A DNA stretch of 64,000 bases from Thermoplasmata archaeon (GCA_029864565.1 JAOTTD010000006.1:2415-66414); one strand, 5' to 3'; counted from the first letter of the stretch, positions 4,022-53,545 are shown. The notes: a model not told the origin generated them from the sequence alone. Program-made: numbers and translations.

Positions 4022-4287
4022 CGGGGCTCTCCGTTTATGCGGTCACACATGACAGTCAATTACAGATGGAGTGTCGCAATTTCTGTGGACATAGCATGAT
4101 GCCCGAAGCCACACATTCGGCGTCGGAGCGCGTAGCTCCGATACTGGCCTGAGCGCTCTTAATAGCCTAACTGGGATATATATAATTACTCGGCTCATTG
4201 TGCGGGTGTGTAAAGCCTCTTCACGAATGGCTCAGCCGCCGCTCACCAAAAAGAAGAATTACCGTGCGGTTCATCTTACTTCATCTC

Positions 4288-6690
4288 ATGGGTGAAGAAT
4301 CTAAGAAGTCCAAGGAGGAACGAGTGGGCGTTTTCGTATGCCACTGCGGCACCAACATAGCAGGCACGGTGGACTGCAAGGCGGTGACGGAGAGCTCTCT
4401 CGACATACCAGGCGTGGTCGTCAGCCGAGACAATGTCTACACGTGCTCAGAACCTGGTCAGAATGAGATAGTCGAGGAGATTAGGAAACACAACCTGACC
4501 AAGGTCGTCATCGCGTCATGTTCTCCGAAGATGCACGAACGCACTTTCAGGAAGACCCTGGAGAAGGCCGGACTGAACCCCTATCTGCTGGAAGTGGTGA
4601 ACCTCAGGGAGCAGTGTTCCTGGGTTCACAAGGACAAGGCGGCGGCGACAAGGAAGGCGAAGGCACTCGTAAGGGGAGGCGTGCAGAGGGCGATCAATCT
4701 GGAGCCACTGCACCCCACAGAGATGGCCCTCTCCAAGGATGCCCTTGTGATTGGGGGTGGGATCGCAGGCATATCGGCGGCACTGCAGCTGGCCAACTCA
4801 GGTTACAAGGTCCACCTGGTGGAGCGAGAGGCCAGCATCGGAGGCAGGATGGCCCAGCTGAGCAAGACCTTCCCAACGCTGGATTGCGCACCATGCATCC
4901 TCAGCCCCAGGATGGTCGAGGCCGGCGCTCATCCAAACGTCGAACTCCTCACGAGGAGCGAGGTGATTCGAGTGACTGGTACCCCCGGCAATTACGAGGT
5001 CAGCGTCCGCGTGTCACCGAGAGGAGTGGACCCGAGCAAATGCACAGGTTGTGCGAAATGCGAGAAGGTCTGCAAGGTGATTGTGCCAAATGAGTTTGAA
5101 GAGGGGCTGTACGAGCGCAAGGCAATCCACAAGCCATTCCCTCAGGCAGTCCCCGCATCCCACGTGATTGATTTCGAGAGCTGCGATGACTGTGGCCGCT
5201 GCGAGAAGGTCTGCGCTGCGAAGGCCATCAATTTCGATGAGGAGGAGAAGGTCGTCGACGTCAATGTGGGCGCCATTGTCATCGCAACGGGCTTCGACGT
5301 CTTCGACGTGAATGCCCTCCGCGAGTACGACTTCTCACTTCCCGACGTCATAACCGGGACACAAATGGAGCGGCTGATGATCAACGAGTGCGGGGCGGGC
5401 ATGGTTCTGAAGCGCAAGGCGGATGGCAAGCGGGTCAAGAAGGTAGCGTTCGTACTCTGCGCGGGCTCTAGAACGAGGAAGGTCGGCATGCCTTACTGCA
5501 GCAAGATATGCTGCAACTACGCCACCAAACAGGCGGTGATTCTGCGCAAGACATTCCCGTACATGCAGGTCTACGTTTACTACATCGACATGCGCACAGC
5601 GGGAAGGGGGTTCGAGGAGTTCTACGCTAGAGCCCAAGAGGAGTTCGGAGTGCGGTTCATCAACGGAAAGGTGGCGTCGATCCAGGCTGGCAAGAGCGGT
5701 GTCCTCCTGAGAGCTGAGGATGTGCCGCTGGGTGAGGTGATCGAGAACGAGTACGACCTCGTCGTGTTGTGTGCTGCCATGGTCCCCTCCAGAGGCACCG
5801 AGGAGCTGGCCAAGACGCTGAAGGTCCCGCTCGGCGAGGATGGTTTCATATCAGAGAAGCATCCGAAGCTAGACCCCGTCTCCACACACAGGTCAGGGAT
5901 ATTCGCCGCGGGGGCGATCATGGGTCCCAAGGATGTCAGGGATAGCGTCGTTGACGGCCGCGGCACCGCATCGCATGTTATGGAGTTCCTGGGAGCCGGC
6001 AAGATGCTGCTCGACCCGGTGAAGGCGCAGGTGGTGAACGGTTCGAGATGCACGAAGTGCATGGCGTGCGAGGCGGTCTGCCCTGTCAGAGCGATATCTG
6101 TGGATCAGATGCCGATCATCGACCAGATCGCCTGCATCGGCTGTGGCGCGTGTGTTTCCGAGTGTCCCGTCGATGTGTTCGACTTGGCGCACTACACTGA
6201 CCGACAGCTAAAAGCCGAGATAGAGGGCGTGCTTAGCGAGGAATCGGACGAGATAAGGACAATCGGCTTTTTCGGAGACATCCTCTCATATGTCGCTGCG
6301 GACTCGGCCGGGACTGCCAGGATGGAGTATCCACCGAGCATACACATCGTCCGTGTTCCGTCAGCCGCTCGCATCGCTAGGGCGGAGATACTGCTGGCAT
6401 TCGCGGCGGGGGCGGACGGCGTTGTACTATCCGACGAGGAGGGAGGAGAGGCAGCACTCGTCGTTGAGAAGCGGATTGAAGCGATGGCCGACGAGTTGGA
6501 TGCATTGGGCATCGGCAAGGACAGGTTGATATTCATACCGATGCTCCTGCCGATCTACAAGGTCCTGCCGAAGCGGATTGAGGCATTCGAGAAGAAAGTA
6601 AAGCGCCTCGGCAAGCTCGGATCCGACGCTATTGCCAAGGCCCGTGAGGCGGCGGAGAAGCAGACGGACCCAGTCTTCGGGGCTGCATGA
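4288..6690 (+). CDS. hdrA: Heterodisulfide reductase subunit A-like flavoprotein with fused C-terminal MvhD-like domain
   Basis: VGVFVCHCGTNI, GGGIAG FAD motif, TFPTLDCAPC, inserted and C-terminal ferredoxin motifs, CSKICC; start trimmed to ATG 4288. Confidence 0.92.
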   Translation: MGEESKKSKEERVGVFVCHCGTNIAGTVDCKAVTESSLDIPGVVVSRDNVYTCSEPGQNEIVEEIRKHNLTKVVIASCSPKMHERTFRKTLEKAGLNPYLLEVVNLREQCSWVHKDKAAATRKAKALVRGGVQRAINLEPLHPTEMALSKDALVIGGGIAGISAALQLANSGYKVHLVEREASIGGRMAQLSKTFPTLDCAPCILSPRMVEAGAHPNVELLTRSEVIRVTGTPGNYEVSVRVSPRGVDPSKCTGCAKCEKVCKVIVPNEFEEGLYERKAIHKPFPQAVPASHVIDFESCDDCGRCEKVCAAKAINFDEEEKVVDVNVGAIVIATGFDVFDVNALREYDFSLPDVITGTQMERLMINECGAGMVLKRKADGKRVKKVAFVLCAGSRTRKVGMPYCSKICCNYATKQAVILRKTFPYMQVYVYYIDMRTAGRGFEEFYARAQEEFGVRFINGKVASIQAGKSGVLLRAEDVPLGEVIENEYDLVVLCAAMVPSRGTEELAKTLKVPLGEDGFISEKHPKLDPVSTHRSGIFAAGAIMGPKDVRDSVVDGRGTASHVMEFLGAGKMLLDPVKAQVVNGSRCTKCMACEAVCPVRAISVDQMPIIDQIACIGCGACVSECPVDVFDLAHYTDRQLKAEIEGVLSEESDEIRTIGFFGDILSYVAADSAGTARMEYPPSIHIVRVPSAARIARAEILLAFAAGADGVVLSDEEGGEAALVVEKRIEAMADELDALGIGKDRLIFIPMLLPIYKVLPKRIEAFEKKVKRLGKLGSDAIAKAREAAEKQTDPVFGAA

Positions 6691-12499: not shown

Positions 12500-13933
<1,434 letters not shown>

Positions 13934-14205: not shown

Positions 14206-15513
14206 ATGGTGATTCCAATGAACCTACGTTACAACGAAACGGCTCTTTATCCAATCCAGATGGACGAGGAATTCGCTGATTTGGATGCAGCCGCGAGCGA
14301 CAGGAAGACGCTGGGAGATGTGCGTTTGGTCGATACGACCTGCAGGGACGGCGAACAGATGCCCGGCATCTCGTTCAACGTTGAAGAGAAGTTGGAGATC
14401 GCGCGCATGCTGGACGACATGGGCGTGGAGCAACTCGAGACATTCGCCACCTATAACGAAAGCGACAGGAGGTGTGCCCGACTTCTTGCCCAGAGGCGTC
14501 GCGACATCTCCATAATGGGATGGAACCGAATGGTCAATAAGGACGTCGAGGACTCCATCACCAGCAACATCGATGCAGTGTCCGTCTCAACCGACACATC
14601 CGACCTGGCGCTTGAGCAGAAACTAAAGATGTCCAGGGAGAAACAGATCGAGAAGCTGATCGACTGCGTCGAGTTCGCAAAATCTCACGGCTTGTACGTT
14701 TGTTTTAACGCAGGGGATGCGACCAGGACCGATGTGGACTACCTCGTGAGGTTCGCCCAAGCCGGGAAGGACGCCGGGGCAGACAGATTCAGGATATGCG
14801 ACACGGTCGGCGTGCTCACTCCGTCCGCGTCATCGAAGCTCATAGGCACGGTCATGTCAAACGTGGACATCGATGTCGAGTTCCACGCGCACAACGACTT
14901 CGGACTGGCAGTCGCAAATGCCCTGGCCGCGTGTGAGGCGGCTGCGCCCTTCGAGAACAGAGCCCTTTGGGTATCGACCACTATTAACGGCCTCGGGGAG
15001 AGGGCGGGGAACGTCCCACTCGAGGTGCTCGTCATGAACCTGCACACTCACTACGGCGTCGACAAGTACGAGACGAAGAAGATTCTCACTCTGTCGAAAC
15101 TCGTGGAGGCAGCGTCGGGCCAGACGATACCGCTCAACTATCCTGTCGTCGGCGGGAATGTGTTCACCCACAAGTCGGGAATCCATGTCGATGGTGTGTT
15201 GAAGAATCCGAAGCTGTACGAAGCGATAGACCCTGAGAAGATAGGCGCTGTCCGGAAGATAGCGCTGGGAAAACACTCGGGGAAGGCCGCTATCAAGCAC
15301 AAGTTGGATCAGATGAACCTCATTGCAGGCGCGGAGAAGATAGAGATTCTCAGGCTGGAGATCAACAAGATCGCCGAAAACAGGAAATCGGACCTTTCCG
15401 ATGACGATTTCATGAATTTGTACAACAGGGTGGCAGGCTCACCCGAGATGTCTAAGAAGACCATTGTAGGAGACGCTGGACTGCTCGGTGGCGGCAAATC
15501 GTCGGGTCACTGA
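14206..15513 (+). CDS. DRE-TIM metallolyase (homocitrate/isopropylmalate synthase family), candidate Re-citrate synthase
   Basis: DTTCRDGEQ, HAHNDFG, NGLGERAGN, HKSGIHVDG, GKHSG; no LeuA regulatory domain. Confidence 0.85.
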   Translation: MVIPMNLRYNETALYPIQMDEEFADLDAAASDRKTLGDVRLVDTTCRDGEQMPGISFNVEEKLEIARMLDDMGVEQLETFATYNESDRRCARLLAQRRRDISIMGWNRMVNKDVEDSITSNIDAVSVSTDTSDLALEQKLKMSREKQIEKLIDCVEFAKSHGLYVCFNAGDATRTDVDYLVRFAQAGKDAGADRFRICDTVGVLTPSASSKLIGTVMSNVDIDVEFHAHNDFGLAVANALAACEAAAPFENRALWVSTTINGLGERAGNVPLEVLVMNLHTHYGVDKYETKKILTLSKLVEAASGQTIPLNYPVVGGNVFTHKSGIHVDGVLKNPKLYEAIDPEKIGAVRKIALGKHSGKAAIKHKLDQMNLIAGAEKIEILRLEINKIAENRKSDLSDDDFMNLYNRVAGSPEMSKKTIVGDAGLLGGGKSSGH

Positions 15514-15525
15514 GGAGGCCAGTCA

Positions 15526-16779
15526 ATGGGCAAGACGATCGTCGAGAAGATATTATCATACAATTCGTGCTCCGATTGTTGGGCCGGCGACGTAGTCGTC
15601 GCTTCCGTGGATTACTGCATGGCTCAAGATGGGACAAGCAAGCTTATGATTGGCGATCTGGACACTCTGGGATTCGAGACACCGAAGACAAGGAATGGTA
15701 TGGCGGTGGTTCTGGACCACAGTTCGCCGAGCCCGTCAGCAGAGGTATCGAGAATACACGGGGAGATTCGTCGGTTCGCCAACAATCATGGCATCACCGT
15801 CCACGACGTGGGCGACGGCGTGTGCCATCAGCTTGTGCCAGAGTCCGGTCTCATACTCCCGGGCAACCTTGTGGTCGGGGCGGACTCGCATACCTGCACT
15901 TATGGCGCTCTCAACCTTTGCTCCACCGGATTAGGCTCAGCGGATGTCGCCGCCGCCGCCCATACGGGCAAGTTGTGGTTCAGGGTACCAGAGACGCACA
16001 AGATACGGATAGATGGGTCCCTCGGAAAGTGCACTGGTGCGAAGGACTTGATATTGGCTCTGATCGGCGGGATCGGCGCAGACGGCGCAACATACAAATC
16101 GACCGAGTTCTGCGGGGAGACGATATCATCGATGAGCATGGACGGCAGGATGACCATGGCGAACATGGTAGTGGAGATGGGCGCGAAGTTCGGCCCATTT
16201 CCATATGATGGCGTGACTGCCAGCTGGTACAAGTCCATCGGCATCACCTCCGATGGCGGTGTCGACAGCGATGACGATGCTCAATTCGAGAAGGGAATGG
16301 ACGTCGACGCCTCAGATGTTGTCCCGAAGGTCGCCGCCCCGCACCGGGTGGACAACGTGAGCGATGTGTCCGAGTATTCGGGTGTTGAGGTTCAGCAGGC
16401 GTTCCTGGGAACGTGCACGAATGGGCGTCTCGAAGATCTCACCGTCGCGGCGAAGATGCTCAAGGGAAGGCATGTGAGCCGGGGAGTTAGAATGATCGTG
16501 GCGCCAGCATCCCGGCGAATACTCATCGAGGCTGTGAAGGCGGGGGTCGCAGAGTCGTTGTTGTCGGCGGGGGCGGTGATTGTAGTTCCAGGCTGTGGCC
16601 CCTGCGTAGGCACGCACGCGGGCGTTCCATCCGATGGCGAGAACGTCGTATCCACGGCCAACAGGAACTTCATGGGACGCATGGGCAACAACAAGGATGT
16701 GTCGATATACTTGGCATCTCCACAGACGGTCGCCGCGTCGGCGATTTGCGGGCGAATAACAGACCCGAGGGAATTGTGA
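15526..16779 (+). CDS. Aconitase-family (LeuC/HacA-type) large subunit
   Basis: DHSSP, GADSHTCTYG, GTCTNGR, GCGPCVG, STANRNF. Confidence 0.93.
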   Translation: MGKTIVEKILSYNSCSDCWAGDVVVASVDYCMAQDGTSKLMIGDLDTLGFETPKTRNGMAVVLDHSSPSPSAEVSRIHGEIRRFANNHGITVHDVGDGVCHQLVPESGLILPGNLVVGADSHTCTYGALNLCSTGLGSADVAAAAHTGKLWFRVPETHKIRIDGSLGKCTGAKDLILALIGGIGADGATYKSTEFCGETISSMSMDGRMTMANMVVEMGAKFGPFPYDGVTASWYKSIGITSDGGVDSDDDAQFEKGMDVDASDVVPKVAAPHRVDNVSDVSEYSGVEVQQAFLGTCTNGRLEDLTVAAKMLKGRHVSRGVRMIVAPASRRILIEAVKAGVAESLLSAGAVIVVPGCGPCVGTHAGVPSDGENVVSTANRNFMGRMGNNKDVSIYLASPQTVAASAICGRITDPREL

Positions 16780-16789
16780 GGTAACGGTC

Positions 16790-17296
16790 ATGAGATTGGA
16801 GGGGCGCGCTCACAGGTTCAAACCCAACGACGACATCAACACGGACTATATCATCTCGGGGAGGTACAAGTTCAAGATCAGCGACATGGACGAGCTAGCG
16901 AAGCACGTGATGGAAGACATCTCTCCGGACTTCGCCATCAGAGTTCGAGAGGGAGATATGGTCATTGCGGGATACAACTTCGGCTGCGGTTCGAGTCGCG
17001 AGCAGGCGCCAAGAGCTTTGAAGGCTGCCGGAATCGCAGCGATTGTCGCGAAATCATACGCGAGGATATTCTATCGGAACTCGTTCAACATCGGCCTGCC
17101 GCTTGTCACATGTGACACTGACTGGATAATCGACGGGGAGGTCGTAACTGTCGACTTCGAGAACGGCAAGGTATCCGGAGCTGGTTCCGGAGGAAGCGCC
17201 GAATTCCGCCCTTTGCCCAAGACGATGCAAGTCCTTCTTGAGGACGGAGGACTGATTCCACATATCAAGAAGCATGGAGGTTTCTCCTTCGAATGA
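16790..17296 (+). CDS. Aconitase-family (LeuD/HacB-type) small subunit
   Basis: DINTDYII, NFGCGSSREQAP, SYARIFYRN. Confidence 0.93.
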   Translation: MRLEGRAHRFKPNDDINTDYIISGRYKFKISDMDELAKHVMEDISPDFAIRVREGDMVIAGYNFGCGSSREQAPRALKAAGIAAIVAKSYARIFYRNSFNIGLPLVTCDTDWIIDGEVVTVDFENGKVSGAGSGGSAEFRPLPKTMQVLLEDGGLIPHIKKHGGFSFE

Positions 17297-17311
17297 TGGG
17301 AGGTGAGATGT

Positions 17312-18496
17312 ATGGGTGACATTGCCAAGGAGATCTTGATACCCTACATTCCAGGGGACGGAATTGGGCCAGACATCATGTCCGCGACCGTGCGCGTCCT
17401 CGACGTTGCGATGAGGGCTGCAACTGCCGGAGGCGTGAAGCTTCACTGGGAGGAGGTGCTTGCCGGGGAGAAGGCGTTCAAGAAGACGGGTTGCTGGCTG
17501 CCCGAAGAGACGCTATCGGTCATCGAGCAGCGAGGCGTCGCCATCAAAGGCCCATTGACCACACCTGTTGGTGGGGGCATACGCAGCCTCAACGTCACCA
17601 TACGACAGTCCCTAGATTTGTACGCATCTGTCAGACCAGCGAGGCATTATGCTGGCGTTCCGAGTCCTGTCAAGCACCCAGAGAAGCTGAATGTCGTGAT
17701 ATTCCGTGAGAACACCGAGGACGTGTACAAAGGCATCGAATGGAAGAGGGGCTCAGAGGAGGCAAAAAGCCTCATCGCGTATCTACGCTCCGAGTTTGGT
17801 GTGGAACTCGGATCTGACTGCGGACTCGGATTGAAGCCTATTTCGGAGTCAGCCACGAAACGCTTGGTTCGATCAGCCATGGAATATGCAGTGCGCAAAG
17901 GCAGAAAAGTCGTGACTTTCGTTCACAAGGGCAACATAATGAAGCACACCGAGGGGGCGTTCAGGGAATGGGGCTACGAGTTGGTTCGAGATGAATTCTC
18001 AGACCACGTCGTGTTCGAGAGCGAAATGCCACAGAAGGATTTGGCCTCGATTCCGAAAGGCATGATAATGGTCAACGACAGAATCGCCGACAACATGCTT
18101 CAGCAGATACTGACTCGACCCGAGGAGTACTCGGTGCTCGTCGCGCCGAATCTGAACGGCGATTACCTGGCGGATGCATGCGCTGCACAGGTCGGCGGAC
18201 TGGGGTTCGCCCCCGGAGCGAACATAGGAGATGGCGTTGCGGTATTCGAACCCGTCCACGGCACTGCCCCCAAGTACGCAGGCAGGAACATTGCGAACCC
18301 TTGCGCCTTGATTCTGTCGGGGTCGATGATGCTCGAGTATCTGGGTTATACCAACGCGTCCTCGCTGGTTGAAAAGGCGGTCGAGGGCGCCTTGGCGCAT
18401 GGCGTGATGACGAGGGACTTTGCGAAATTGGCGGGGTTGCAGTCACACGTCGGCACGAGTGAGTTCGCGGATGCAGTCATCGATAGGATGGCCTGA
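17312..18496 (+). CDS. icd: NADP-dependent isocitrate dehydrogenase
   Basis: GDGIG, KGPLTTPVGGGIRSLNV, RENTED, HKGNIMK, NLNGDY, HGTAPKYAG; GGAGGTGA SD. Confidence 0.95.
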   Translation: MGDIAKEILIPYIPGDGIGPDIMSATVRVLDVAMRAATAGGVKLHWEEVLAGEKAFKKTGCWLPEETLSVIEQRGVAIKGPLTTPVGGGIRSLNVTIRQSLDLYASVRPARHYAGVPSPVKHPEKLNVVIFRENTEDVYKGIEWKRGSEEAKSLIAYLRSEFGVELGSDCGLGLKPISESATKRLVRSAMEYAVRKGRKVVTFVHKGNIMKHTEGAFREWGYELVRDEFSDHVVFESEMPQKDLASIPKGMIMVNDRIADNMLQQILTRPEEYSVLVAPNLNGDYLADACAAQVGGLGFAPGANIGDGVAVFEPVHGTAPKYAGRNIANPCALILSGSMMLEYLGYTNASSLVEKAVEGALAHGVMTRDFAKLAGLQSHVGTSEFADAVIDRMA

Positions 18497-20971: not shown

Positions 20972-22765
20972 TCACTCCGCTATGCGCTTGTCTAGGAATC
21001 GCACGGATCTCTCGTACAGGTCTCTCAGGTTCTTTCGCTTACGCGGCCAGTGGCCCTCGTCCTTGTACTCGTGATACTCGTAGTCCTTCCCCATCTTCTC
21101 GAGCCTCCGCACGACCTCCCTTGTCTCCGTAGGCGGGCACCTCACATCGCGCGCGGACGCAGTAAGCAGGATCGGTGCTCTGAGGTTTTCCATGAAGTTT
21201 ATAGGAGACCTATCCCAGTATAGCTCAGGGTTGTCCTTCGGATCTCCCATCTTGCTCAGGTCATACGCTTTGAGATAACCTCTCTCGCTCTCGAACTCTG
21301 TTACGCAATCGAAATAGCCAACGATTGACACTCCAGCGGCCCACATGTCAGGAGCCTTCGTAAGCGCAAGCATGCACAAATATCCGCCATAGCTCGCTCC
21401 CCAGAATCCCAACTTGTCCTCGTCCGCGAAGCCGGTTCTCACCAGATACCTTCCGCCGTGTATGACGTCTTTGAGGTCTCCTCCTCCAAGGTCCTTGTTG
21501 TGCAGGTGAAGAAACTCCCGGCCGTATCCAGTGGAGCCGCGGTAGTTGGGCAGGATCACCGAGAACCCCTTTATGACAAACATCTGGACGATCTGGTCCC
21601 AGAGGTTCAGCGACTGCATCTCTGGCCCTCCATGAGGTATCACAACCCCGCGTCCTGTGGGACCGCCTTTAGGAAGGAAGAGCATGGCCGATATCCGTCT
21701 TCCATCGAATGAACGATACTTAACGACTCTCGGCTGTGCGAACGCATGTGTTGGGAGGTCGGTGCTCTGAAACCTCGTCAGGCGCTTTGGTCTGCCTCTC
21801 CTGACGATGAACATCTCCTCCGGTCTCATGGATGATCCGTTGATGAAGACAATGCCCGAGTCATCAGGCAGCCAATGGTGGCTTCTCGAGACGCCGGTCT
21901 TGTTTGAGACCGTGTGCGTCCTACCTTTCTCCTTCACCTTGACGACTATGTTCGGATCCTCAACCTCCAGATAGGCCAGCTTCGCCCCATCACTGGACCA
22001 CTGGGGGCTGTATTTGTCGTTCGCCGAGCGCGCCAACCAACGTTGTCTCCTGGTGACAATCTCTAGCATGCCTATGTCATTGGAGTCGTATTCGTTGGAC
22101 ACGAACAGCAGCTTTGAGCCATCGGCGGACCATTGCATGGGTTTGGCGCCGTAGCCCCAGATGCCGTAGTCGACGTTCTTCTTGGACAGAATGCGCTTCG
22201 TCTTGCGGTTCAACGCGTCTACGGTCGAGATGTAGTCTCCATCGCTTATGCCTGCTCCATACGCGATTGTGCGCCCATCGGGAGACCATGCGAATTCTCT
22301 GACGGGCAGTTCTTCGTCAGTGAGACGCGTAAGCTCTCCGCCCTCAGAGTCCACGACGTAGAGGTTCTCCATATCGTCCTTGCGGTTGGAGATGAACGCG
22401 ATTCTCTTGCCATCGGGGGAGAACTGGGGGCTCTCGTTGTCAGCGACACTGTCCGTGACCTTCTTCGGATTCCTTCCATTGCCATCGACGACGAAAACAT
22501 CGTAGTCTTCGTCCCCCTCGAAGTCCGCTTGATAAGCAATCCTCGTTCCGCATGGTGAGTATGTAGGAGACAGAAGGGCCTGATCTCCGGACATGATCCT
22601 CCTGATCTTCCCGTCCGTGAGGTTCATGATCGCGAGTTCGTAGTTGTGACCCTTGTTCACGGAACATACCGCTTTCGCGCCGTCCGGGTGTATGCTGTAC
22701 TCCTGCACCTCTATGGCCTTGAACAGCCCAGAAGTGTTGACTCGGTCCACTCGTCTGGATGACAT
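20972..22765 (-). CDS. S9 family peptidase with beta-propeller (PD40-like) repeats
   Basis: SPDG repeats, HGGP, GASYGG nucleophile, DVRC, EGH; start trimmed to ATG 22765. Confidence 0.92.
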   Translation of the reverse strand: MSSRRVDRVNTSGLFKAIEVQEYSIHPDGAKAVCSVNKGHNYELAIMNLTDGKIRRIMSGDQALLSPTYSPCGTRIAYQADFEGDEDYDVFVVDGNGRNPKKVTDSVADNESPQFSPDGKRIAFISNRKDDMENLYVVDSEGGELTRLTDEELPVREFAWSPDGRTIAYGAGISDGDYISTVDALNRKTKRILSKKNVDYGIWGYGAKPMQWSADGSKLLFVSNEYDSNDIGMLEIVTRRQRWLARSANDKYSPQWSSDGAKLAYLEVEDPNIVVKVKEKGRTHTVSNKTGVSRSHHWLPDDSGIVFINGSSMRPEEMFIVRRGRPKRLTRFQSTDLPTHAFAQPRVVKYRSFDGRRISAMLFLPKGGPTGRGVVIPHGGPEMQSLNLWDQIVQMFVIKGFSVILPNYRGSTGYGREFLHLHNKDLGGGDLKDVIHGGRYLVRTGFADEDKLGFWGASYGGYLCMLALTKAPDMWAAGVSIVGYFDCVTEFESERGYLKAYDLSKMGDPKDNPELYWDRSPINFMENLRAPILLTASARDVRCPPTETREVVRRLEKMGKDYEYHEYKDEGHWPRKRKNLRDLYERSVRFLDKRIAE

Positions 22766-22833
22766 TTCAATCGACCCTGTTCGACGGAAGGCTCTCTTTC
22801 GATTTGAGACTTTTGGCCGGGCGGAAGCTGCGG

Positions 22834-23613
22834 TCACAACCGTAGTTGCAGAAGCTGTATCTCGGATCTCGGGAGCTGCTCGGATGCTAAGATTCCGCAG
22901 CCGACGAATCCCTTTTCCAAGAACCACTTCGACGGGCCGTTCGGGAAGGTGAGTTCGTCGGACGATGCTACGGAGAGGGTATCGTACCCACTCTCTCGAA
23001 GATGCTCCACCAGCGCATTGAGAGGATGCGTCCGATAGTCGTGCTCGTCGTCAGAAGCGAACGAACATGTAAGAAATGCGTTCTTATCCCTCTTGTTTGG
23101 GATGGGATATGGCACCTTCGTGGATGGGAGATATTCAGCTCCGCCTACGCATCCACCATCGACCATGTGCAGAAAGCCCAGATGGTCTGCGTTGATGTCC
23201 TCCAGCATCTCTTTCACCCATTCGGCCTTCCCGCGACATATGCCCGTGTCGCATGATCTCAAACACGGCTCGCAGGTAGACAACACGCTGTCTGGCGTGA
23301 TCGGAACGAGATCGCCCTTCACGACTTTGCCGCCAATATTTGCTCTGCTCTGTCTGGGTGCGAAGTCCTCGTCGTAGAGCATCGCCAGGACCTCCTCGTT
23401 GGAGAATGGCCCCTGCCATCTGTATCTATCGTTGACGATCAACATTGTTGGCGAGAATATGGCATACTCTTCACATGCACTATCGTCGACGGAGACGTCG
23501 TGCAGATGAAGGGTCACCGACTCCTTCCATGCAATCGTCTTGATCCGCGCCAGGAGGTAGACATTGTGCAGGCACTGATAGCCGAAGTAGAAGAACCTGA
23601 AACTGCGGGGCAT
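22834..23613 (-). CDS. Thioredoxin-like (YoaP-like) domain plus GNAT-like domain protein
   Basis: YFGYQC..IFSPTMLIVND N-terminal domain; CRGKAEW..GGAEYLP..FLTC..PNGPSKWFLEKGF GNAT-like domain. Confidence 0.6.
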   Translation of the reverse strand: MPRSFRFFYFGYQCLHNVYLLARIKTIAWKESVTLHLHDVSVDDSACEEYAIFSPTMLIVNDRYRWQGPFSNEEVLAMLYDEDFAPRQSRANIGGKVVKGDLVPITPDSVLSTCEPCLRSCDTGICRGKAEWVKEMLEDINADHLGFLHMVDGGCVGGAEYLPSTKVPYPIPNKRDKNAFLTCSFASDDEHDYRTHPLNALVEHLRESGYDTLSVASSDELTFPNGPSKWFLEKGFVGCGILASEQLPRSEIQLLQLRL

Positions 23614-38872: not shown

Positions 38873-40759
38873 TTGTCATGCCTCAAGTGTGAGAGTGAAT
38901 GCGAAGAGGGCGCGCTTATATGCGGAGATTGCGCCGATGTGTGCTTCAGGGAAGCGCGGTTCTTCTTGACCCCTGTTCTAATCGGCCCGAGCCTCTACGC
39001 TAGACTCAGGTCCGAAGGGTCTATTGCCAGCATGTTGGGACCGACTGCCGATCGGGATGTTTCGCTCATCGCCTCTGCAGATGTCAGGAGGACCCTTCTG
39101 GACACGGCTATAGAGGGGCTGACCAAAGATGAGGCGAGGACTCTCGTAGATCTGTGCAACCGTACGCTCGCGCACATGGGCGTACCGCTCAAATACGAAC
39201 CTCCAATGATGGCGTTGACAGAGGATGCTGCAGACACTATAATGACAGTGATTCGTCTGATTGATGCACTGTCCGAAAGCGATGCCGATTTGCTGTCCAG
39301 CGATATCTGCCTGCGCCTGGGCGTCGTCTATTGGACCGCGTCGCACGGGGTATTGCTCAGGACCGCGAGCCGGTCATGGAGGGCTGAGAAGAAGGCCTAT
39401 CTTGTAGGTCGCGCGAAGGACTACTTCTCGAGGGTCGATGAGCGCGACGACCTCTTCTCCATCGCTGTCTGGAATCTAGGGATGCTGTGTTCTGAGAACG
39501 ACGACTGGGAAGAGGCCAAGCAGTATCTCGAGAAGACGCGGATGCACTTCCCGAGCGACAACAAGATTGCGGAGCGCTTGGTTAAGGCCGAACTCGAGCT
39601 CGGCAACCCTGTCGAAGCGTTGTCAATGGTGGACGAGATACTGGTCCAGTCAGTTTCAGCGCAGCTTTGGCTGCTGAAAGGGGACATACTGCTTAAGGTC
39701 GGCAGGAGCGAAGAGGCGCTCGAGTGCTTCAATCAGTCTCTCTCCTTGGACCCAGGTCTCATTGATGCTCACAACAGGCTGATTGCATCCCTCAGAACGA
39801 TGGGCAGGGACGAGGAGGCGACGTTGGCGGAGAGGCAGAGGATGATTTCGAGGACGCCTGGCATCGAAGAGAAGGTTCTGGACGTCATCGGAGAGCTCAC
39901 CCGCGCCCCCTCTCAGCCCACGCTGGCAAGGGCGCACATCAGGCAGATGGCCCGCGTCAAGAAGGACCTGGATGAGCCTATTGCCCCCCCTGTCACGGAA
40001 TCACCGTTGTCTCTGGCAATCGCCGCCCTCGAAGCGAAGGATTACGACCTCGCGATTCAACGCTCTCAGCATATTGTGGACGCCGATCCGAGCTCGAGGG
40101 AGGCAAACCTCCTGCTCATCGAGGCCATGGTGGAGGTTGGAGACTTATCTGGCGCTTCCGAACGTGTCCATGCGTTCTACGAGAGGAATCGAAACGACCC
40201 GTACGCATGGTACTGGCGCGGAATTGTAGCGGAGAAGGAGAGCAAGTGGGGCGCGGCGGTGCAGTACTTCAGCAAGGCCGTGACCATTGACCCTGAGCTG
40301 GCAGAGGCGTGGGCCGCCATGGGCGACACTTTGTTGGCCAACGAGAAGTACAACGGCGCAGATGAGAGCTACTCAAGAGCCTTGCAGATCGACGCCGACA
40401 ACGCGAAGGCATGGCTGGGAAAAGGGAAGACTATGCGCGCTCTCGGGAGATGGGGCGCGGCGATACAGTGTCTCGACAAGTACAACTCGATAGTGCCCAA
40501 CGACAGACAGGCATGGCTGCTCAAGGCGGACACACTCTTGGAGAAGGAGAAGTACCGTAGGGCTATTGACGCCTACAACAAGTACCTTGAGCTTTACCAG
40601 GACGACTCATATGCACTTGGACGAAAGGGGGCCGCTCTGAACTCAGTCGGCATGGTCGATGAGGCCATAGCCTGCCTGGAAGAGAGTGTGCGACTTGACC
40701 CGAACAACAAGGACGCGCTGAAGTTGCTCCGCGCGATAACCGACGGGGGGAGTGTGTAA
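38873..40759 (+). CDS. TPR repeat protein with N-terminal Zn ribbon
   Basis: CLKC..ICGDC; multiple TPRs (AW..KG..L..LG...EA); TTG start after GGAGG. Confidence 0.85.
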   Translation: MSCLKCESECEEGALICGDCADVCFREARFFLTPVLIGPSLYARLRSEGSIASMLGPTADRDVSLIASADVRRTLLDTAIEGLTKDEARTLVDLCNRTLAHMGVPLKYEPPMMALTEDAADTIMTVIRLIDALSESDADLLSSDICLRLGVVYWTASHGVLLRTASRSWRAEKKAYLVGRAKDYFSRVDERDDLFSIAVWNLGMLCSENDDWEEAKQYLEKTRMHFPSDNKIAERLVKAELELGNPVEALSMVDEILVQSVSAQLWLLKGDILLKVGRSEEALECFNQSLSLDPGLIDAHNRLIASLRTMGRDEEATLAERQRMISRTPGIEEKVLDVIGELTRAPSQPTLARAHIRQMARVKKDLDEPIAPPVTESPLSLAIAALEAKDYDLAIQRSQHIVDADPSSREANLLLIEAMVEVGDLSGASERVHAFYERNRNDPYAWYWRGIVAEKESKWGAAVQYFSKAVTIDPELAEAWAAMGDTLLANEKYNGADESYSRALQIDADNAKAWLGKGKTMRALGRWGAAIQCLDKYNSIVPNDRQAWLLKADTLLEKEKYRRAIDAYNKYLELYQDDSYALGRKGAALNSVGMVDEAIACLEESVRLDPNNKDALKLLRAITDGGSV

Positions 40760-43362
40760 TGGTCGAGTTGGACCGCATTCTGAGCGAACGGTCTGACGAG
40801 CGAATACTGGCGGCCCTGCACGCCGTCTCCGATTCGGAGTTCTACAGATTCGCCGAGCGCGTGCTAGGCTACATCGGCCTCAAGATAATGAAGAAACGCA
40901 CCAAAGGGGATTTCATCATCGCGGATTGCGTACACAGGCCGGATGGCGAAAACTACGTGGCATTCCTGTCCAGGCGCCACGAGCCGGTCTCGAAACAGTC
41001 CGTCGAAAGCCTCGTCTCCTACATGAAGAGAGTGGGCGCCTCGAAGGGATTGGTTTTGTCATCCTCGTCGATAGTGAGCGGCGCGGTCAAGGTGGCCGAG
41101 GCAAATGACGTAGAGGTCGCCGACGGGCCAAAACTCGCGGCTCTGATACGCCGGTTCGATCTGGACCGGGAGTTGGCTAAGGGGGCGGAGATAGCTAGCG
41201 AGCACAGCGCGAGGTTTGGGGAATCAGAGGATTTGGAGGAATCGGTCGCCCAGAAGATGGCAGACGGCTTTGACGCACTGTCCAACAAGAATTTCCTCAA
41301 GGCATTGGAGTACGTCGACCAAGTGATTCTATCCAACGATGATCTCGATACGGCTTGGCGATTCAAGGCAACCGTCCTGGACGAGATGGGTTATCACGAG
41401 CAGGCACTTGAATGCTACAGACACGCCCTGGACATCAATAGGGACAGCGACGAGACCTGGTTCGCGCTGGCCAACTGCCTCTTCTCCCTGTCAAGACACG
41501 AGGAGGAGCTGAAATGCTACAGCCGAGCGCTCGCGCTCAACCCTCTCAACCTCAAAGCGCTAATCAACAAAGGATTTACCCTTCATAGACTCGGCAGATA
41601 CCAGGAGGCGCTGGACGTATATGACGAGGTGCTCAGGAGGAACTATCGCCTGGAGAAGGTCCACAACAACCGAGGAGTCACCCTTCATAGACTGGGCCGT
41701 CTAGATGACTCATTGGAGGCCTACGATCACGCCCTGGCGCTTCGCCATGGGTATGTCGAAGCGCTTGTGAACCGGGGCAACCTGCTGGTCGAAATGGAGC
41801 GATTCGAAGACGCTTTGGCCGCATTCACTCAGGTGACAGAGGTCCAGCCAGACATGCCAAGAGGATGGCGCTTGCGAGGAGCCGTCGCGCTCAAGCTCGA
41901 AAGGAAGTCCGATGCGAAGAGATCTTTCGAGGAGGCGCTCAGACTCGACGAGGGCGACGCAGAGGCCAAGATGGCGCTCGAGGAGCTCAAGAGCACCGCC
42001 GATGGCAGGTTCGTGGAAGCACCGAGGCTCGTGGAAGAGATATTCTCACTGAAGGCGGAAGAGGCTTCTTCCGAACCTTTGGAGCCCGAGCCAGCAGCCG
42101 AGGACTTGCTGTTAGATGAGAAGACCGGACCGATTGAGCAGCTCGTCGAGGAGCTCTATGGCGACCGCGCGGAACTTCTACTTCTTCTTGGAAGATTGGA
42201 CGAGGCTCACGATTACCTGAGCAAATCATTGAGGCTGGAGGGAGAGAATCCACGTCTTTTGACCGCAGCCGGAAACGTGCTCTTCAGGCAGGGCAGGTTC
42301 GAGGCGGCGATAAAGACCTACGAGCAAGCATACGCGGCAGATCATGGCTTCGTACCCGCCCTCTACAACCTTCATATGGCCCTTCTAGTCGCGGGTGAGA
42401 GTGAGTGGGCCGTCAGGGTGAGCAAGTCGCTTAGGGAGTCTTCCCGGGGATGGCAGGCCCGCGCGGCGTCGGCGATAGAGGCTGTGAAGCGCAAGGACTA
42501 CAATCGCGCCATCGAGGATGTCGAAGTGGCCCTCGCAATTGAGAATCTGTCCACGTTGCGCAATTTCAAAGGAGTGCTGCAACTCCTCTCGGATGATTAT
42601 GATGGCGCCATCGAGACATTCACAAGGCTCACAACCGGGGCCTTCGATCCATCAGAAGCCCACAACAACCTTGGAGTCGTGATTCTCAAGAAGGGTGATT
42701 GGGAGGACGCAGGTGCGCAATTCGAAAGGTCCATGAAGCTGCGCAAGGGCAACCCCACGGCGTGGAACAACCGTGGGTGTGTGCTGTACAAGGAGGAGCG
42801 ACTCAGGGAGGCGATAGCGTGCTTTGAGGAGTCTCTCGTGATCAACCCGACGACGGTCGCGATGAACAACAAGGGCTTCACGCAGCTGTCGTTGGACATG
42901 CTCGAGGACGCAGTCAGATCGTTCGAGCAGTCCCTCAAGATAATGGAGACTCCAGAGGCGTTCAACAGCAAAGGAATCGCCCTCGTTAGACTGAACCGTT
43001 TCGACGAAGCCATAGTGGCGTTTAGGGAGGCTCTCAGGATCGCACCTGAGTTCGATGATGCGAATGCAAATCTCCGTGACGCGCTCGTGCAGAGGTCGGC
43101 GCCAATTCCCGAGGTGAAGGAACCCCTTCCGCCTCCACCTCCGCCCCCGCCGCTCCCAGCACCCGTTAGGGTTAAGAAGCGCGTGGACTACAACAAGGCG
43201 AAGATGGAGCTACTGAGATATGAAAACGCGAAGACCCTGAAGGATAAGAAGAAGTCCGAGCTCGAGGCCATGTGCATAGCGGTCGATGCGAGCTCAAGAG
43301 GGACCAAGAAGGAGCTAGTAGGGCGCCTGCTGAAAGAGAAGAGGCGACTGCTAAAGAGGTAG
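40759..43362 (+). CDS. Mrr-like (degenerate) domain + TPR repeats + polyproline + SAP-like domain protein
   Basis: N-terminal GASKGLVLSSS..VADGPKLAALI Mrr-type C-terminal motif; many TPRs; LPPPPPPPPLP; SELEAMC..SSRGTKKELVGRL. Confidence 0.82.
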   Translation: MVELDRILSERSDERILAALHAVSDSEFYRFAERVLGYIGLKIMKKRTKGDFIIADCVHRPDGENYVAFLSRRHEPVSKQSVESLVSYMKRVGASKGLVLSSSSIVSGAVKVAEANDVEVADGPKLAALIRRFDLDRELAKGAEIASEHSARFGESEDLEESVAQKMADGFDALSNKNFLKALEYVDQVILSNDDLDTAWRFKATVLDEMGYHEQALECYRHALDINRDSDETWFALANCLFSLSRHEEELKCYSRALALNPLNLKALINKGFTLHRLGRYQEALDVYDEVLRRNYRLEKVHNNRGVTLHRLGRLDDSLEAYDHALALRHGYVEALVNRGNLLVEMERFEDALAAFTQVTEVQPDMPRGWRLRGAVALKLERKSDAKRSFEEALRLDEGDAEAKMALEELKSTADGRFVEAPRLVEEIFSLKAEEASSEPLEPEPAAEDLLLDEKTGPIEQLVEELYGDRAELLLLLGRLDEAHDYLSKSLRLEGENPRLLTAAGNVLFRQGRFEAAIKTYEQAYAADHGFVPALYNLHMALLVAGESEWAVRVSKSLRESSRGWQARAASAIEAVKRKDYNRAIEDVEVALAIENLSTLRNFKGVLQLLSDDYDGAIETFTRLTTGAFDPSEAHNNLGVVILKKGDWEDAGAQFERSMKLRKGNPTAWNNRGCVLYKEERLREAIACFEESLVINPTTVAMNNKGFTQLSLDMLEDAVRSFEQSLKIMETPEAFNSKGIALVRLNRFDEAIVAFREALRIAPEFDDANANLRDALVQRSAPIPEVKEPLPPPPPPPPLPAPVRVKKRVDYNKAKMELLRYENAKTLKDKKKSELEAMCIAVDASSRGTKKELVGRLLKEKRRLLKR

Positions 43363-46122: not shown

Positions 46123-47007
46123 ATGTACGAGGTTCGTTTCCACGGCCGAGGCGGCCAAGGGGCGGTGATGGCCGCACAGGCGCTCGCAAGTGCGGCGCAC
46201 GCGGAGGGGGGATATGCAACTGCCTTTCCCTTCTTCGGTGCTGAGAGACGCGGAGCACCAGTTCTTGCCTTCACACGGATAGATGAGAAGAGGATCTATC
46301 GGAAGACACAGGTCTACGAACCTGATTTCGTGGTGGTATTGGACGAAGGCCTTCTCGAATCTGTCAATGTGGTCGAGGGGCTCAAAAAGGGCGGTGTGGT
46401 CCTCGTCAATTCCACTAGAAAACCAGAAGAGATCGATGTGGGAATCGACACGAAACTCGCTACCGTTGACGCGACTAGTGTCGCGCTCGAGGTCCTCAAG
46501 CAGCCGGCGACCAACTCCTCCATTCTTGGAGCATTGGCAAAGGCGACCGGTCTGGTCAAGATAGAGTCCATAGAGATGGGGATAATGCAGGTCTTCGGCG
46601 ACAGACTAGGACCGAAGATAGGGGAAAAGAACGCCAGAGCCGCACGCGTCGCTTTTGAGAGGACTGTCGTCGGAGAGTCTCATGGAAAGCGAGTCCTGAA
46701 AACCGCTGAGAAGTGGCTCCCTGACGTGAACAATCTCCCAATGGGCGTCGCGGGCGTCGCAATGAAGACGACCGCCGGAGCGGTCGGCCCTGGTTCGTTC
46801 TTGGAGAACAAGACGGGCAGTTGGAAGGTGTTCAAGCCTGAATACGACGAGGAGAAGTGCACCATGTGCAACTTCTGCTGGTTCTACTGCCCTGAGGGGT
46901 GCATATACAGGAAAGACGACCGGATGGAGTTCGATATGGATTACTGCAAGGGCTGCGGAATCTGTGCGAACGAGTGCCCAGCCGAGGCAATCAATATGGT
47001 GAGGTGA
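46123..47007 (+). CDS. Pyruvate/2-oxoacid:ferredoxin oxidoreductase, fused gamma-delta subunit
   Basis: [18 protein letters not shown]; KTGSW + two CxxCxxCxxxCP motifs. Confidence 0.93.
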
Positions 47008-47009
47008 GG

Positions 47010-48194
47010 TTGGTGGTATCTAAGATATGCACCGGTAACTACGCAGCTGCCTACGGGTCAATGCGGTCCAGGGCCAGAACCGTAGCGGCATATCCAATCA
47101 CGCCTCAGACGTTCATAGTTGAGCACATATCAGAGTTCATAAACAACGGAGAGATGGACTGCGAGTATATCGAGGTGGAAAGCGAACACTCCGCCATGAG
47201 CGCTTGCGTGTCTGCGAGCGCCTCTGGAGTGCGGACATTCACGGCGACTTCCTCTCAGGGACTCGCGCTGATGCACGAGATTCTCCCGATAGCTAGCGGC
47301 ATGAGGTTGCCCGTGGTTATGGCCGTCGTCAACCGGGCCATCGCCGCGCCTATCAACATCTGGGTCGAGCACAACGACATCATGCCCGAGAGGGACTCAG
47401 GATGGATCCAGGTGTTCTGCGACAACAACCAAGAAGTCCAGGACATGGTCCTACAAGCTTATCGGATTGCGGAGGACAAGCGCGTGTCACTACCTATGGC
47501 AGTCTGTCTGGATGCGTTCATATTGTCGCATACGGTCGAGCCGGTCCATCTGATCGACCAGGATGCGGCCGACAAGTTCGTGCCTCAGTACAAACCCACA
47601 GGACCGATACTGGATCCTGATGATGTTGCCGCCGTCGGCGTCTTCACTCCGCCAGATTACATGATGGAATGCAGGTGGCAGACGGACAAGGCAATGAGGG
47701 ACGCGGTTGCGGTTATCAAGGAAGTCAACGACACGTTCGCAAAGCAGTTCGGCCGGGATCACGGTGGCATGATAGACCCGTACTTGGTCGACGACGCTGA
47801 GGTGGTGCTGATTACCATGGGCACAGCGAGTTCGACGGCTCACGAAGTCGTGGACGATCTGAGGGCAGAGGGAAAGAAGGTCGGCCTCGTCAAACTGCGG
47901 TTCTGGCGCCCCTATCCTACGGACGATCTCAGAAAGATCGCCGAGAAGGTCAAGGCGGTCGGTGTGTTCGATCGGGCTGTTTCATACGGCGTAGGTGGCC
48001 CTTCATTCGTGGAGTTCAAGAGTGCCGCGTTCGGCTTAAACCTGCCAGTTATGAACTTCATAGGCGGGTTGGGCGGCAGAGACGTGTCGTTGCAGGACGT
48101 TCGGTTCATGTACGAACAGCTGCTTGAAGCGGCGAAGACCGGTAAGGCCAAACGCGATATCACTTGGATCGGAACGCGGGGGGTGGAGCAGTGA
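47010..48194 (+). CDS. porA: Pyruvate/2-oxoacid:ferredoxin oxidoreductase alpha subunit
   Basis: AAYPITPQT, ESEHSA, TATSSQGL, GLGGRD. Confidence 0.93.
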   Translation: MVVSKICTGNYAAAYGSMRSRARTVAAYPITPQTFIVEHISEFINNGEMDCEYIEVESEHSAMSACVSASASGVRTFTATSSQGLALMHEILPIASGMRLPVVMAVVNRAIAAPINIWVEHNDIMPERDSGWIQVFCDNNQEVQDMVLQAYRIAEDKRVSLPMAVCLDAFILSHTVEPVHLIDQDAADKFVPQYKPTGPILDPDDVAAVGVFTPPDYMMECRWQTDKAMRDAVAVIKEVNDTFAKQFGRDHGGMIDPYLVDDAEVVLITMGTASSTAHEVVDDLRAEGKKVGLVKLRFWRPYPTDDLRKIAEKVKAVGVFDRAVSYGVGGPSFVEFKSAAFGLNLPVMNFIGGLGGRDVSLQDVRFMYEQLLEAAKTGKAKRDITWIGTRGVEQ

Positions 48195-49081
48195 AGCTCA
48201 AGGAATTGCCCGATGAGGAACTGTTCACGCGCGGACACACCGCTTGCGCGGGCTGTGGGGCGGCAACCGCCGTCCGCAACCTCATGAAGATTCTCGGAAA
48301 GAACACGATGGTCGTCAATCCCGCCTGTTGCCTGCTCATATTCGGCGCGACTTATCCGTACCTCGCTTGGAAGGTTCCGTTCCATCACGTAGCGTTCGAG
48401 AACACCGCGGCATGCGCGACTGGCATGACCAGGGCCTTGAGGGTGAGAGGAAAGGAAGACACGTTGGTGATGGGCATCGCTGGCGACGGCGGGACTGCAG
48501 ACATCGGGATACAGGCGCTTTCAGGAGCAGCAGAGAGAAATGAGGACATGTTGTACGTCATGTACGACAACGAGGCCTACATGAACACTGGGATTCAGCG
48601 TTCCGGCTCGACACCGTTCGGCGCATGGACGACCACGACCCCTGTTGGCAAGGTCAAGGCTGGAAAAGCCGATTTCAAGAAGGATATGCCCCTGATCATG
48701 ATGGCCCACAATGTGCCCTATGTCGCGACGGCCTCCGTAGGCAACATACAGGATTTCATCAACAAGTTCGAGAAGGCCAAGAAGATGAAGGGTTTCAGAT
48801 ACATCCAGATCTTCACGCCGTGTCCCACGGGATGGAGGCACGACACCGCCAAGACGATAGAGATAGCCAAGCTGGCGGTCGAAACCGGCATGTGGACTCT
48901 GTATGAGTGCGAGAACGGCAAGGTCAAGATAAACCGCAAGCCGAAGATGACTCCGATATCGGAGTATCTGAAGCTCCAGGGTCGTTTCAGACACATGAAG
49001 GAGGACGACATCAAGAAGCTGCAGGACTGGGTCACTCGCAAGTGGGAAGCGGACGAGAAGTACGCACAATGTAGACAGTAG
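48191..49081 (+). CDS. porB: Pyruvate/2-oxoacid:ferredoxin oxidoreductase beta subunit
   Basis: GHTACAGCG, GDGG..DIG, YDNEAYMNTGIQ, PCPTGW. Confidence 0.93.
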   Translation: MKLKELPDEELFTRGHTACAGCGAATAVRNLMKILGKNTMVVNPACCLLIFGATYPYLAWKVPFHHVAFENTAACATGMTRALRVRGKEDTLVMGIAGDGGTADIGIQALSGAAERNEDMLYVMYDNEAYMNTGIQRSGSTPFGAWTTTTPVGKVKAGKADFKKDMPLIMMAHNVPYVATASVGNIQDFINKFEKAKKMKGFRYIQIFTPCPTGWRHDTAKTIEIAKLAVETGMWTLYECENGKVKINRKPKMTPISEYLKLQGRFRHMKEDDIKKLQDWVTRKWEADEKYAQCRQ

Positions 49082-53544: not shown

Positions 53545-53545
53545 C

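Follow-up and report, generated by a model that had tools for sequence, protein, structure and literature searches.

The window analysed here is a 64,000-nucleotide stretch of a Thermoplasmata archaeon genome (GCA_029864565.1, JAOTTD010000006.1:2415-66414), and our subject is a candidate operon for 2-oxoglutarate synthesis at positions 14206-18496. The block encodes a synthase of the homocitrate synthase/isopropylmalate synthase (HCS/IPMS) family, two subunits of the LeuC/LeuD type and an isocitrate dehydrogenase (ICDH). Its four open reading frames (ORFs) are co-directional on the + strand, all end in TGA and are separated by spacers of 12, 10 and 6 bp (Table 1), which agrees exactly with the tightly spaced cluster described in the initial annotation. 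Shine-Dalgarno sites precede the LeuC-type gene (GAGGAGG), the LeuD-type gene (GAGGT) and the ICDH gene (GGGAGGTGA). None is visible at the synthase start, so the earlier statement that all four genes carry such a site holds for three of them. Translation of ICDH probably begins at the ATG rather than at the GTG at 17303, because the GGGAGGTGA site directly precedes that ATG. For the synthase, the database copy, 431 aa long at 99% query coverage, is consistent with translation from the second ATG. The GC content is even over the operon and matches the flanks. The eno gene directly upstream and the pyruvate ferredoxin oxidoreductase (POR) operon within the same window, both mentioned in the initial annotation, are present.

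Table 1. Features of the window, with positions counted from its first nucleotide.
Feature	Position	Strand	Remarks
Synthase ORF	14206..15513	+	435 aa; alternative start 14218 possible
LeuC/HacA-type large subunit ORF	15526..16779	+	417 aa
LeuD/HacB-type small subunit ORF	16790..17296	+	168 aa
NADP isocitrate dehydrogenase (ICDH) ORF	17303..18496	+	397 aa; probable start ATG 17312
Enolase (eno)	12521..13933	+	Pfam Enolase_N and Enolase_C; upstream neighbour across a 272-bp gap to the synthase
POR operon	46123..49081
HdrA-MvhD fusion	4198..6690	+	830 aa; HdrA-like flavoprotein (Pyr_redox_2), several 4Fe-4S ferredoxin domains and MvhD (FlpD)
S9 prolyl-oligopeptidase gene	20972..22927
Mrr-TPR protein	40759..43362	+	867 aa; N-terminal Mrr-type restriction-endonuclease domain, then a long tetratricopeptide repeat (TPR) array; adjoins a 628-aa TPR protein
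his operon	52672..59763	+	hisG, hisD, hisC, hisH, hisA, hisB, hisF, hisIE, PHP-domain gene
Clostripain-family (C11) peptidase gene	60254..61459	-	adjacent to the next
Clostripain-family (C11) peptidase gene	61610..62773	-

Enzymes encoded by the four genes

To judge by its sequence, the fourth gene encodes a bona fide NADP isocitrate dehydrogenase of the homodimeric type. It passes the NADP-isocitrate dehydrogenase equivalog NF005425 (530.6 against a cut-off of 490) and lies just under TIGR00183 (564.7 vs 567.3). Compared with the PDB, it matches the A. fulgidus enzyme (2iv0) with 511 bits and E. coli isocitrate dehydrogenase (1ai2) with 443 bits, both over the full length, and homoisocitrate dehydrogenases (HICDH) and isopropylmalate dehydrogenases (IPMDH) with at most 185 bits. 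All ten E. coli residues that we take to be the isocitrate and metal ligands are kept in the alignment (S113, N115, R119, R129, R153, Y160, K230, D283, D307 and D311). Of six further E. coli residues that presumably contact the NADP 2'-phosphate, K344, Y345 and R292 are identical, and V351, Y391 and R395 are replaced by A, R and K, respectively, the latter two being basic. NADP preference is thus predicted but not certain, since three of the six contacts differ. The GIRSLN and APKYAG motifs, on which the gene had earlier been called an E. coli-type, NADP-linked isocitrate dehydrogenase rather than an IPMDH or HICDH, are both present, and the equivalog match and the ten ligands bear that assignment out.

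LeuC and LeuD form a textbook subunit pair, and the second and third genes encode, by profile scores and motifs, a heterodimer of this LeuCD/HacAB type within the aconitase superfamily. The large subunit passes the subfamily models PRK00402 (513.5 > 385) and hacA_fam (504 > 385.7) and fails the equivalogs LEU2 (423 < 611) and HacA_Meth (405 < 550). The small subunit passes LEUD_arch (182.1 > 109) and fails HacB2 (181 < 230) and leud (159 < 246). The earlier description of the pair as LeuC/LeuD-like therefore stands at the level of the broad subfamily cut-offs. The cluster cysteines of a [4Fe-4S] hydro-lyase are kept in the large subunit (GTCTNGR, PGCGPCVG), and the small subunit carries the GSSRE motif (GCGSSREQA). 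These features and the two-subunit architecture are shared with HacAB and LeuCD of M. jannaschii, whose small subunits (2pkp, 3vba) are matched with 132-135 bits. The M. jannaschii enzymes pair with AksF or LeuB, whereas the partner here is an ICDH, and the window's subunits miss the equivalog cut-offs. They also differ in one loop of the small subunit, which we take to govern the choice of substrate by the M. jannaschii enzymes. In the PDB alignments the window's SGRYKFK lies opposite YLRT of HacB (2pkp, GPYLRTT), YLVY of LeuD (3vba, ARYLVYT) and YNLT of a P. horikoshii subunit, as the initial annotation had pointed out for the two M. jannaschii loops. SGRYKF is invariant in 18/18 small subunits of family f1 of the archaeal order to which the window's clade belongs, and is followed there by K (15 cases), S (2) or R (1).

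The synthase consists of an HMGL-like domain (PF00682, 223.6 bits) and an HCS_D2 domain (PF22617, 80 bits), and Pfam gives no match to the LeuA_dimer domain (PF08502), as expected for the HCS-like DRE-TIM enzyme without a LeuA regulatory domain proposed earlier. It stays under every NCBIfam cut-off, those of the subfamily models included. The top match is PRK00915.1-2 (412 < 517) and the second-best is NifV (TIGR02660, nifV_homocitr; 385.8 < 462.9), LysS (TIGR02146) reaches 320.4 < 413.55, and the LeuA equivalog models are each missed as well. The cluster as a whole falls below the AksA/HacAB and NifV/LysS equivalog cut-offs, and so by score it does not group with AksA/HacAB, the competing assignment raised in the initial annotation. 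Databases name the orthologs 'homocitrate synthase NifV'. The closest solved structure is the S. acidocaldarius HCS 6ktq (252 bits, residues 38-385), which has the same barrel and subdomain, the metal-binding HxH and SGIH. It differs in carrying REGEQ, AHSR and AEDATR where the window's synthase has RDGEQ, GWNR and AGDATR, and no lysine pathway was detected in the window's genome. Metagenomic proteins more than 65% identical to the synthase number in the thousands, and in a library clustered at 50% identity its clade has one representative, the next match being 44% identical.

In phylogenetic trees (FastTree with 159 rows, IQ-TREE quick with 65 rows) the synthases of the archaeal order form a single clade with a support of 99, which is joined weakly (89-90) by a few Lokiarchaeial and unnamed sequences. 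A 53-row clade (SH-aLRT 99) holds these synthases together with a large bacterial clade that has aconitase and ICDH genes as neighbours. The GWNR motif is common to the window's clade and the bacterial clade ([GA]WNR), and the same site reads AHSR in HCS and SLSR in LeuA. Two other substitutions are specific to the order, namely the Cys of DTTCRDGEQ, where 140 of ~147 family representatives have L, and the Lys of HKSGIH, which corresponds to E in both the paralogs and the bacterial clade. Together with a Gly confined to f1, these give C, K and G in the window's synthase vs L, E and E in the sampled bacteria, from which it is further set apart by its separate clade and by an extra N-terminus of ~35 residues. 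Near the active-site motifs the net effect is a loss of two acidic residues and a gain of one basic residue, a shift that, as a speculation, would be compatible with a shorter dicarboxylate substrate. Re-face stereochemistry, which the name given to the synthase in the initial annotation implies, is not supported beyond what the HCS/IPMS family and fold suggest.

Conservation in the archaeal order and in bacteria

The gene order eno-synthase-LeuC-LeuD-ICDH is kept in 17/17 sampled f1 genomes from four genera. In 33 of the 40 f1 genomes that hold both synthase and ICDH, the two genes lie on one contig no more than 5 kb apart, and the arrangement is therefore not a product of chance. The 49 genomes of the order include 43 with an ortholog of the synthase, 41 with one of LeuC and 40 with one of ICDH. 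All three are missing from the same six f1 genomes (G013, G018, G020, G022, G040 and G043), and the remaining gaps concern two genomes that are very incomplete and family f2. In G022, which is 98% complete and in one contig, the region reads Lhr-eno-ICDH remnant-Na+/H+ exchanger-TrxR-S9 peptidase. The remnant is an 82-codon 3'-end of ICDH, 60% identical (positions 8796-9038 of locus L131, G022:C1:1393000-1404500). It is a deletion scar, and the block was lost as a unit. In G018 the exchanger gene directly abuts eno. The eno gene thus stays in place where the four-gene block has been deleted, and neither a functional tie between the conserved eno and the block nor its membership in the transcription unit is demonstrated.

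Family f2 is arranged differently. Its synthase homolog, 58-59% identical, stands solitary among housekeeping genes, and elsewhere there is a cluster of LeuC, LeuD and a short ICDH-like gene, with the loop GKYKFKT in the small subunit and RSVN and APKYAG in the dehydrogenase. The loop matches [KR][YH]KFK[TS] in both f2 genomes (2/2). Recent transfer of the block from bacteria was considered and rejected on three grounds: its GC content is like that of the flanks, its synthase groups with archaeal sequences and the best solved relative of its ICDH is archaeal.

The bacterial clade, which is annotated 'homocitrate synthase' and whose members are 40-46% identical to the window's synthase, includes proteins of Dictyoglomus, Desulfotomaculum-like Clostridia, Caldanaerobius, Thermacetogenium and others. 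Named genomes were scanned with an alignment of twelve clade members, which returned 80 loci. The hosts are Desulfovirgula, Dictyoglomota, Moorella, Desulfosporosinus, Thermincola, Caldanaerobacter, Thermoanaerobacterium, Clostridioides and other Peptostreptococcaceae, Clostridium, Syntrophomonas wolfei, Desulforudis, Thermoleophilia and others. A split LeuCD lies downstream of the synthase in 29/80 loci (20 with ICDH, 9 without) and a fused or monomeric aconitase-family protein in 21/80 (8 with ICDH, 13 without), the fused form measuring ~640 aa. No aconitase-family gene was found downstream in 12 loci with ICDH and 16 without, and 2/80 loci have fragments only. ICDH is present in 41/80 loci overall. 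Where at least 4.5 kb of downstream sequence is available, 50/61 loci have an aconitase-family gene, ICDH or both. The split enzyme and the fused aconitase occupy the same slot, which argues for the same job.

The window's large subunit is 53-57% identical to the bacterial split LeuC-like proteins encoded between synthase and ICDH, compared with 44-45% to paralogs in its own genome and 33-35% to the fused form. A tree places the cluster-linked large subunits of archaea and bacteria as sister groups (support 87) and leaves the paralogs outside them. Among bacterial cluster-linked small subunits the loop was located in 26, and 21 of these read [KR][YH]KFK[TS]. From this genomic context, the second and third genes of the block are candidates for the subunits of an aconitase (EC 4.2.1.3). 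A literature search for a heterodimeric or two-subunit aconitase, or for a large or small aconitase subunit, found no description of one. The families listed in a 2021 survey of the aconitase superfamily are AcnA, AcnB, mAcn, cAcn/IRP, AcnD, HACN, IPMI and AcnX, and a heterodimeric aconitase is not on that list (PMC8184944).

In the other 5/26 small subunits, from Thermoleophilia/Actinomycetota (among loci L057, L096, L100, L103, L111 and L113), the loop reads GR[LY]FHLR instead of KFK, apparently an alternative loop for the same setting. The synthase-LeuCD-ICDH loci of this group have ~550 bp between the LeuC-like and LeuD-like genes.

Known counterparts have been described in Clostridia. The products of CA_C0970, CA_C0971 and CA_C0972 (CitA-CitB-CitC) of C. 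acetobutylicum were purified and reported as a Re-citrate synthase, an aconitase and an NADH-ICDH (PMC4669385). The likeness lies in adjacent genes for the same three reactions, an HCS/IPMS-family synthase, and a strict anaerobe making 2-oxoglutarate. The clostridial aconitase is described as one gene product, whereas the window's is split into 417 and 168 aa, and the clostridial ICDH is NADH-dependent, whereas that of the window has an NADP motif. In C. thermocellum a Re-citrate synthase candidate adjoins an aconitase gene (PMC6115520). Layton et al. deleted HM1_2993, reported as solitary in the Heliomicrobium modesticaldum genome, and concluded that it encodes a Re-citrate synthase (PMC12016533). 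The same paper distinguishes two clades of Re-citrate synthase that are only ~28% identical to each other, one with the enzymes of C. kluyveri, Syntrophus and also C. acetobutylicum, the other with those of Heliomicrobium, Thermoanaerobacter, C. difficile and, at a greater distance, Dehalococcoides, all of them carrying the annotation 'homocitrate synthase'. Enzymes of the Heliomicrobium/Thermoanaerobacter/Clostridioides type are short (~380 aa) and are described as being without a regulatory domain, like the window's synthase. Re-citrate synthase activity in the archaeon Ignicoccus is cited there (PMC12016533). Our literature search for Re-citrate synthase in archaea gave no archaeal lineage using one among the matches listed. 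By analogy, the system would be an archaeal counterpart of the clostridial Re-citrate synthase/aconitase/ICDH cluster, a kind already known from Clostridia. What appears newer is its conservation as an operon in an archaeal order, the separate synthase clade with remodelled motifs and the KFK-loop LeuCD heterodimer as putative aconitase partner in many anaerobes.

Proposed pathway, its alternatives and its meaning

Taking the comparative genomics together, we are largely persuaded that the most likely role of the four-gene block is to make 2-oxoglutarate from acetyl-CoA and oxaloacetate. In this pathway the synthase would condense the two substrates to citrate. The LeuC/LeuD-type [4Fe-4S] heterodimer would convert citrate through cis-aconitate to isocitrate, with the basic KFK loop standing in for the substrate-discriminating loop of the M. 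jannaschii enzymes. ICDH would then yield 2-oxoglutarate in an NADP-dependent step, and glutamate dehydrogenase (GDH) would provide the link to glutamate. The block would replace the missing gltA-type citrate synthase and AcnA/AcnB, and would be dispensable in relatives that feed on peptides, from which it was deleted as a whole. The oxidative tricarboxylic acid (TCA) cycle branch that the initial annotation proposed is in keeping with the linkage of the genes, their co-loss, the failure to find gltA, AcnA or AcnB, the true ICDH and the bacterial parallels.

The window's own genome (1.93 Mb, with the window on contig C22) has three HMGL-like synthases, four LeuC-type loci and three Iso_dh genes. 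A leuA-leuC-leuD-leuB-like operon lies on contig C44, with the small-subunit loop AEYLVT and a synthase that passes the LeuA equivalog NF002086 (535.1 > 532), so leucine synthesis is covered elsewhere in the genome. A gltA-type citrate synthase (PF00285) was not found in this genome. Neither was AcnA or AcnB, for which it is the sole genome searched, as every PF00330 match belongs to one of the four LeuC-type loci. The check for gltA and acnA that the initial annotation proposed thus turned up neither in this genome. Across the order PF00285 occurs in 1/49 genomes. In a class-level sample it occurs in 155/251 genomes, that is in 1/34 of the order and 154/217 elsewhere, and the window-type synthase occurs in 30/34 genomes of the order and 0/217 elsewhere. 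Two unpublished genomes from outside the order, G233 and G136, are included in these tallies and have PF00285; leaving them out gives PF00285 counts of 153/249 and 152/215. In two further LeuCD pairs, at G000:C4:62100-63930 and G000:C62:30-981 of the own genome, the small-subunit loop is G[RK]YLDNYD, which differs from the LeuD, HacB and KFK types, and the pair on C4 stands head to head with an indolepyruvate-oxidoreductase-like gene.

Several observations weigh against the proposed pathway. The own genome is 86% complete. A congener that is 75% complete carries PF00285 (locus L026, G031:C104:8156-9268) beside having the four-gene block, and this gene, the only one of its kind found in the order, may stem from contamination or transfer or be truly redundant. 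In the f1 synthases the Gly of FNAGDATR, a residue found only in this family, replaces the Glu typical of the position (E 112, Q 14, M 8 and T 6 among ~147 representatives; f2 retains E), and we take that Glu to be the proposed general base of HCS/IPMS. The trees were built without the characterised Re-citrate synthases of C. kluyveri, Syntrophus, Dehalococcoides and Heliomicrobium. The sampled bacterial clade fits the Heliomicrobium/Thermoanaerobacter type of Re-citrate synthase by its host families and annotation rather than by the actual sequences. The archaeal clade is neither nested in this bacterial clade nor its exclusive sister, 14 other representatives of unassigned function being nearer to the bacteria than the archaeal synthases are, and phylogeny alone therefore gives no substrate. 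Nor was a route to oxaloacetate found. Phosphoenolpyruvate (PEP) carboxylase and PEP carboxykinase were each found in 0/12 and 0/5 genomes (four families), and Ldh/Mdh (PF02866) in 0/12. PycB/OadA was not found in the own genome, where the HMGL-like search returned the three synthase genes alone. The neighbouring eno had been taken as a hint at PEP-derived oxaloacetate, which is not supported, as no PEP carboxylase, PEP carboxykinase or pyruvate carboxylase was found in these searches. Malic enzyme is present in 11/12 genomes, and aspartate transamination is the obvious candidate source of oxaloacetate in a peptide feeder.

The same gap in oxaloacetate supply gives some footing to flux in the reverse direction, an idea we nevertheless regard as improbable. 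Here a peptide fermenter would reductively carboxylate glutamate-derived 2-oxoglutarate to isocitrate and citrate, and citrate would be cleaved to supply acetyl-CoA and oxaloacetate or aspartate. Searches in the genus turned up no carboxylating route to oxaloacetate, GDH occurs in 5/5 genomes (the own genome and four relatives, 86-98% complete), peptidase genes lie in the window and the ICDH and aconitase reactions are reversible. Citrate cleavage driven by the synthase, however, is strongly unfavourable, and aspartate is directly available to peptide feeders. Moreover, Layton et al. treat Re-citrate synthase as the cycle's one irreversible enzyme (PMC12016533), and labelling is reported to have shown the oxidative direction in organisms with related bacterial clusters (PMC12016533, PMC6115520). 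The synthase might also take another 2-oxoacid, pyruvate to give citramalate or glyoxylate to give malate, leaving the isomerase and ICDH to handle imported tricarboxylates. The family is promiscuous and the substrate not readable from sequence, the pocket substitutions are unusual, and in f2 the synthase is unlinked from LeuCD-ICDH. We hold this to be very unlikely, given the tight linkage in f1 and the co-loss of synthase and ICDH, the two other synthase paralogs available for leucine and isoleucine, and neighbours (eno and a Na+/H+ exchanger) that include no linked citrate transporter.

The explanation to which we give the least credence follows the database names and is highly improbable, namely a homocitrate synthase and homoaconitase module for 2-oxoacid elongation (of the AksA/HacAB, NifV or alpha-aminoadipate lysine kind) next to which the dehydrogenase just happens to lie. 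The name 'NifV' carried by the orthologs, nifV_homocitr as second-best NCBIfam match and an HCS as best solved relative speak in its favour. The scores under the NifV, LysS, HacA and HacB cut-offs do not, nor do a small-subunit loop of KFK rather than the HacB LRT and a linked dehydrogenase that is of the isocitrate-specific type, not an HICDH, and was lost together with the synthase. No known homocitrate consumer was found either: mcrA (PF02249) is in 0/1 genomes (the own genome), and in the five genomes nitrogenase (PF00148) gave 0/5 and LysX (TIGR02144) 0/5 over cut-off. LysA likewise reached its cut-off in 0/5. The oxidative route to 2-oxoglutarate thus keeps our preference.

A further proposal reaches beyond this route, and on it we come down slightly on the side of doubt. 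The archaeal synthase may represent a third citrate synthase lineage that evolved separately in the HCS/IPMS family, with a remodelled pocket (Cys/Leu, Lys/Glu, Gly/Glu). It would be paired with an unrecognised heterodimeric aconitase subfamily, diagnosed by TDYIISG[KR][YH]KFK and found in many anaerobic bacteria and the archaeal order. If so, this subfamily would supply the aconitase lacking in TCA reconstructions of Syntrophomonas, Desulforudis, Desulfotomaculum-like lineages, Dictyoglomota and the archaeal order. Reconstructions of uncultured anaerobes often report a TCA cycle without citrate synthase and aconitase and call genes of this kind lysine, leucine or nitrogenase-cofactor genes. 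Were the proposed pathway correct, a whole archaeal order, many Clostridia, Dictyoglomota and others would rely on misannotated genes for an oxidative route to 2-oxoglutarate and glutamate. Annotators could use the small-subunit motif, together with linkage to ICDH, to tell homoaconitase and isopropylmalate isomerase apart from a split aconitase. The substitutions in the archaeal synthase would offer a natural experiment on the choice of 2-oxoacid and the activation of acetyl-CoA in the family.

Other features of the window

The HdrA-MvhD fusion listed in Table 1, in a genome without a detected mcrA, points to electron bifurcation or disulfide reduction that is not part of methanogenesis. The two adjacent C11 peptidase genes and the S9 prolyl-oligopeptidase gene are consistent with a protein-degrading lifestyle. 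Against the compact his operon stands the apparent absence of either lysine pathway from the five genomes (LysA and LysX below cut-off). The window also encodes a protein in which an Mrr-type restriction-endonuclease domain is joined to a TPR array, next to a second TPR protein.

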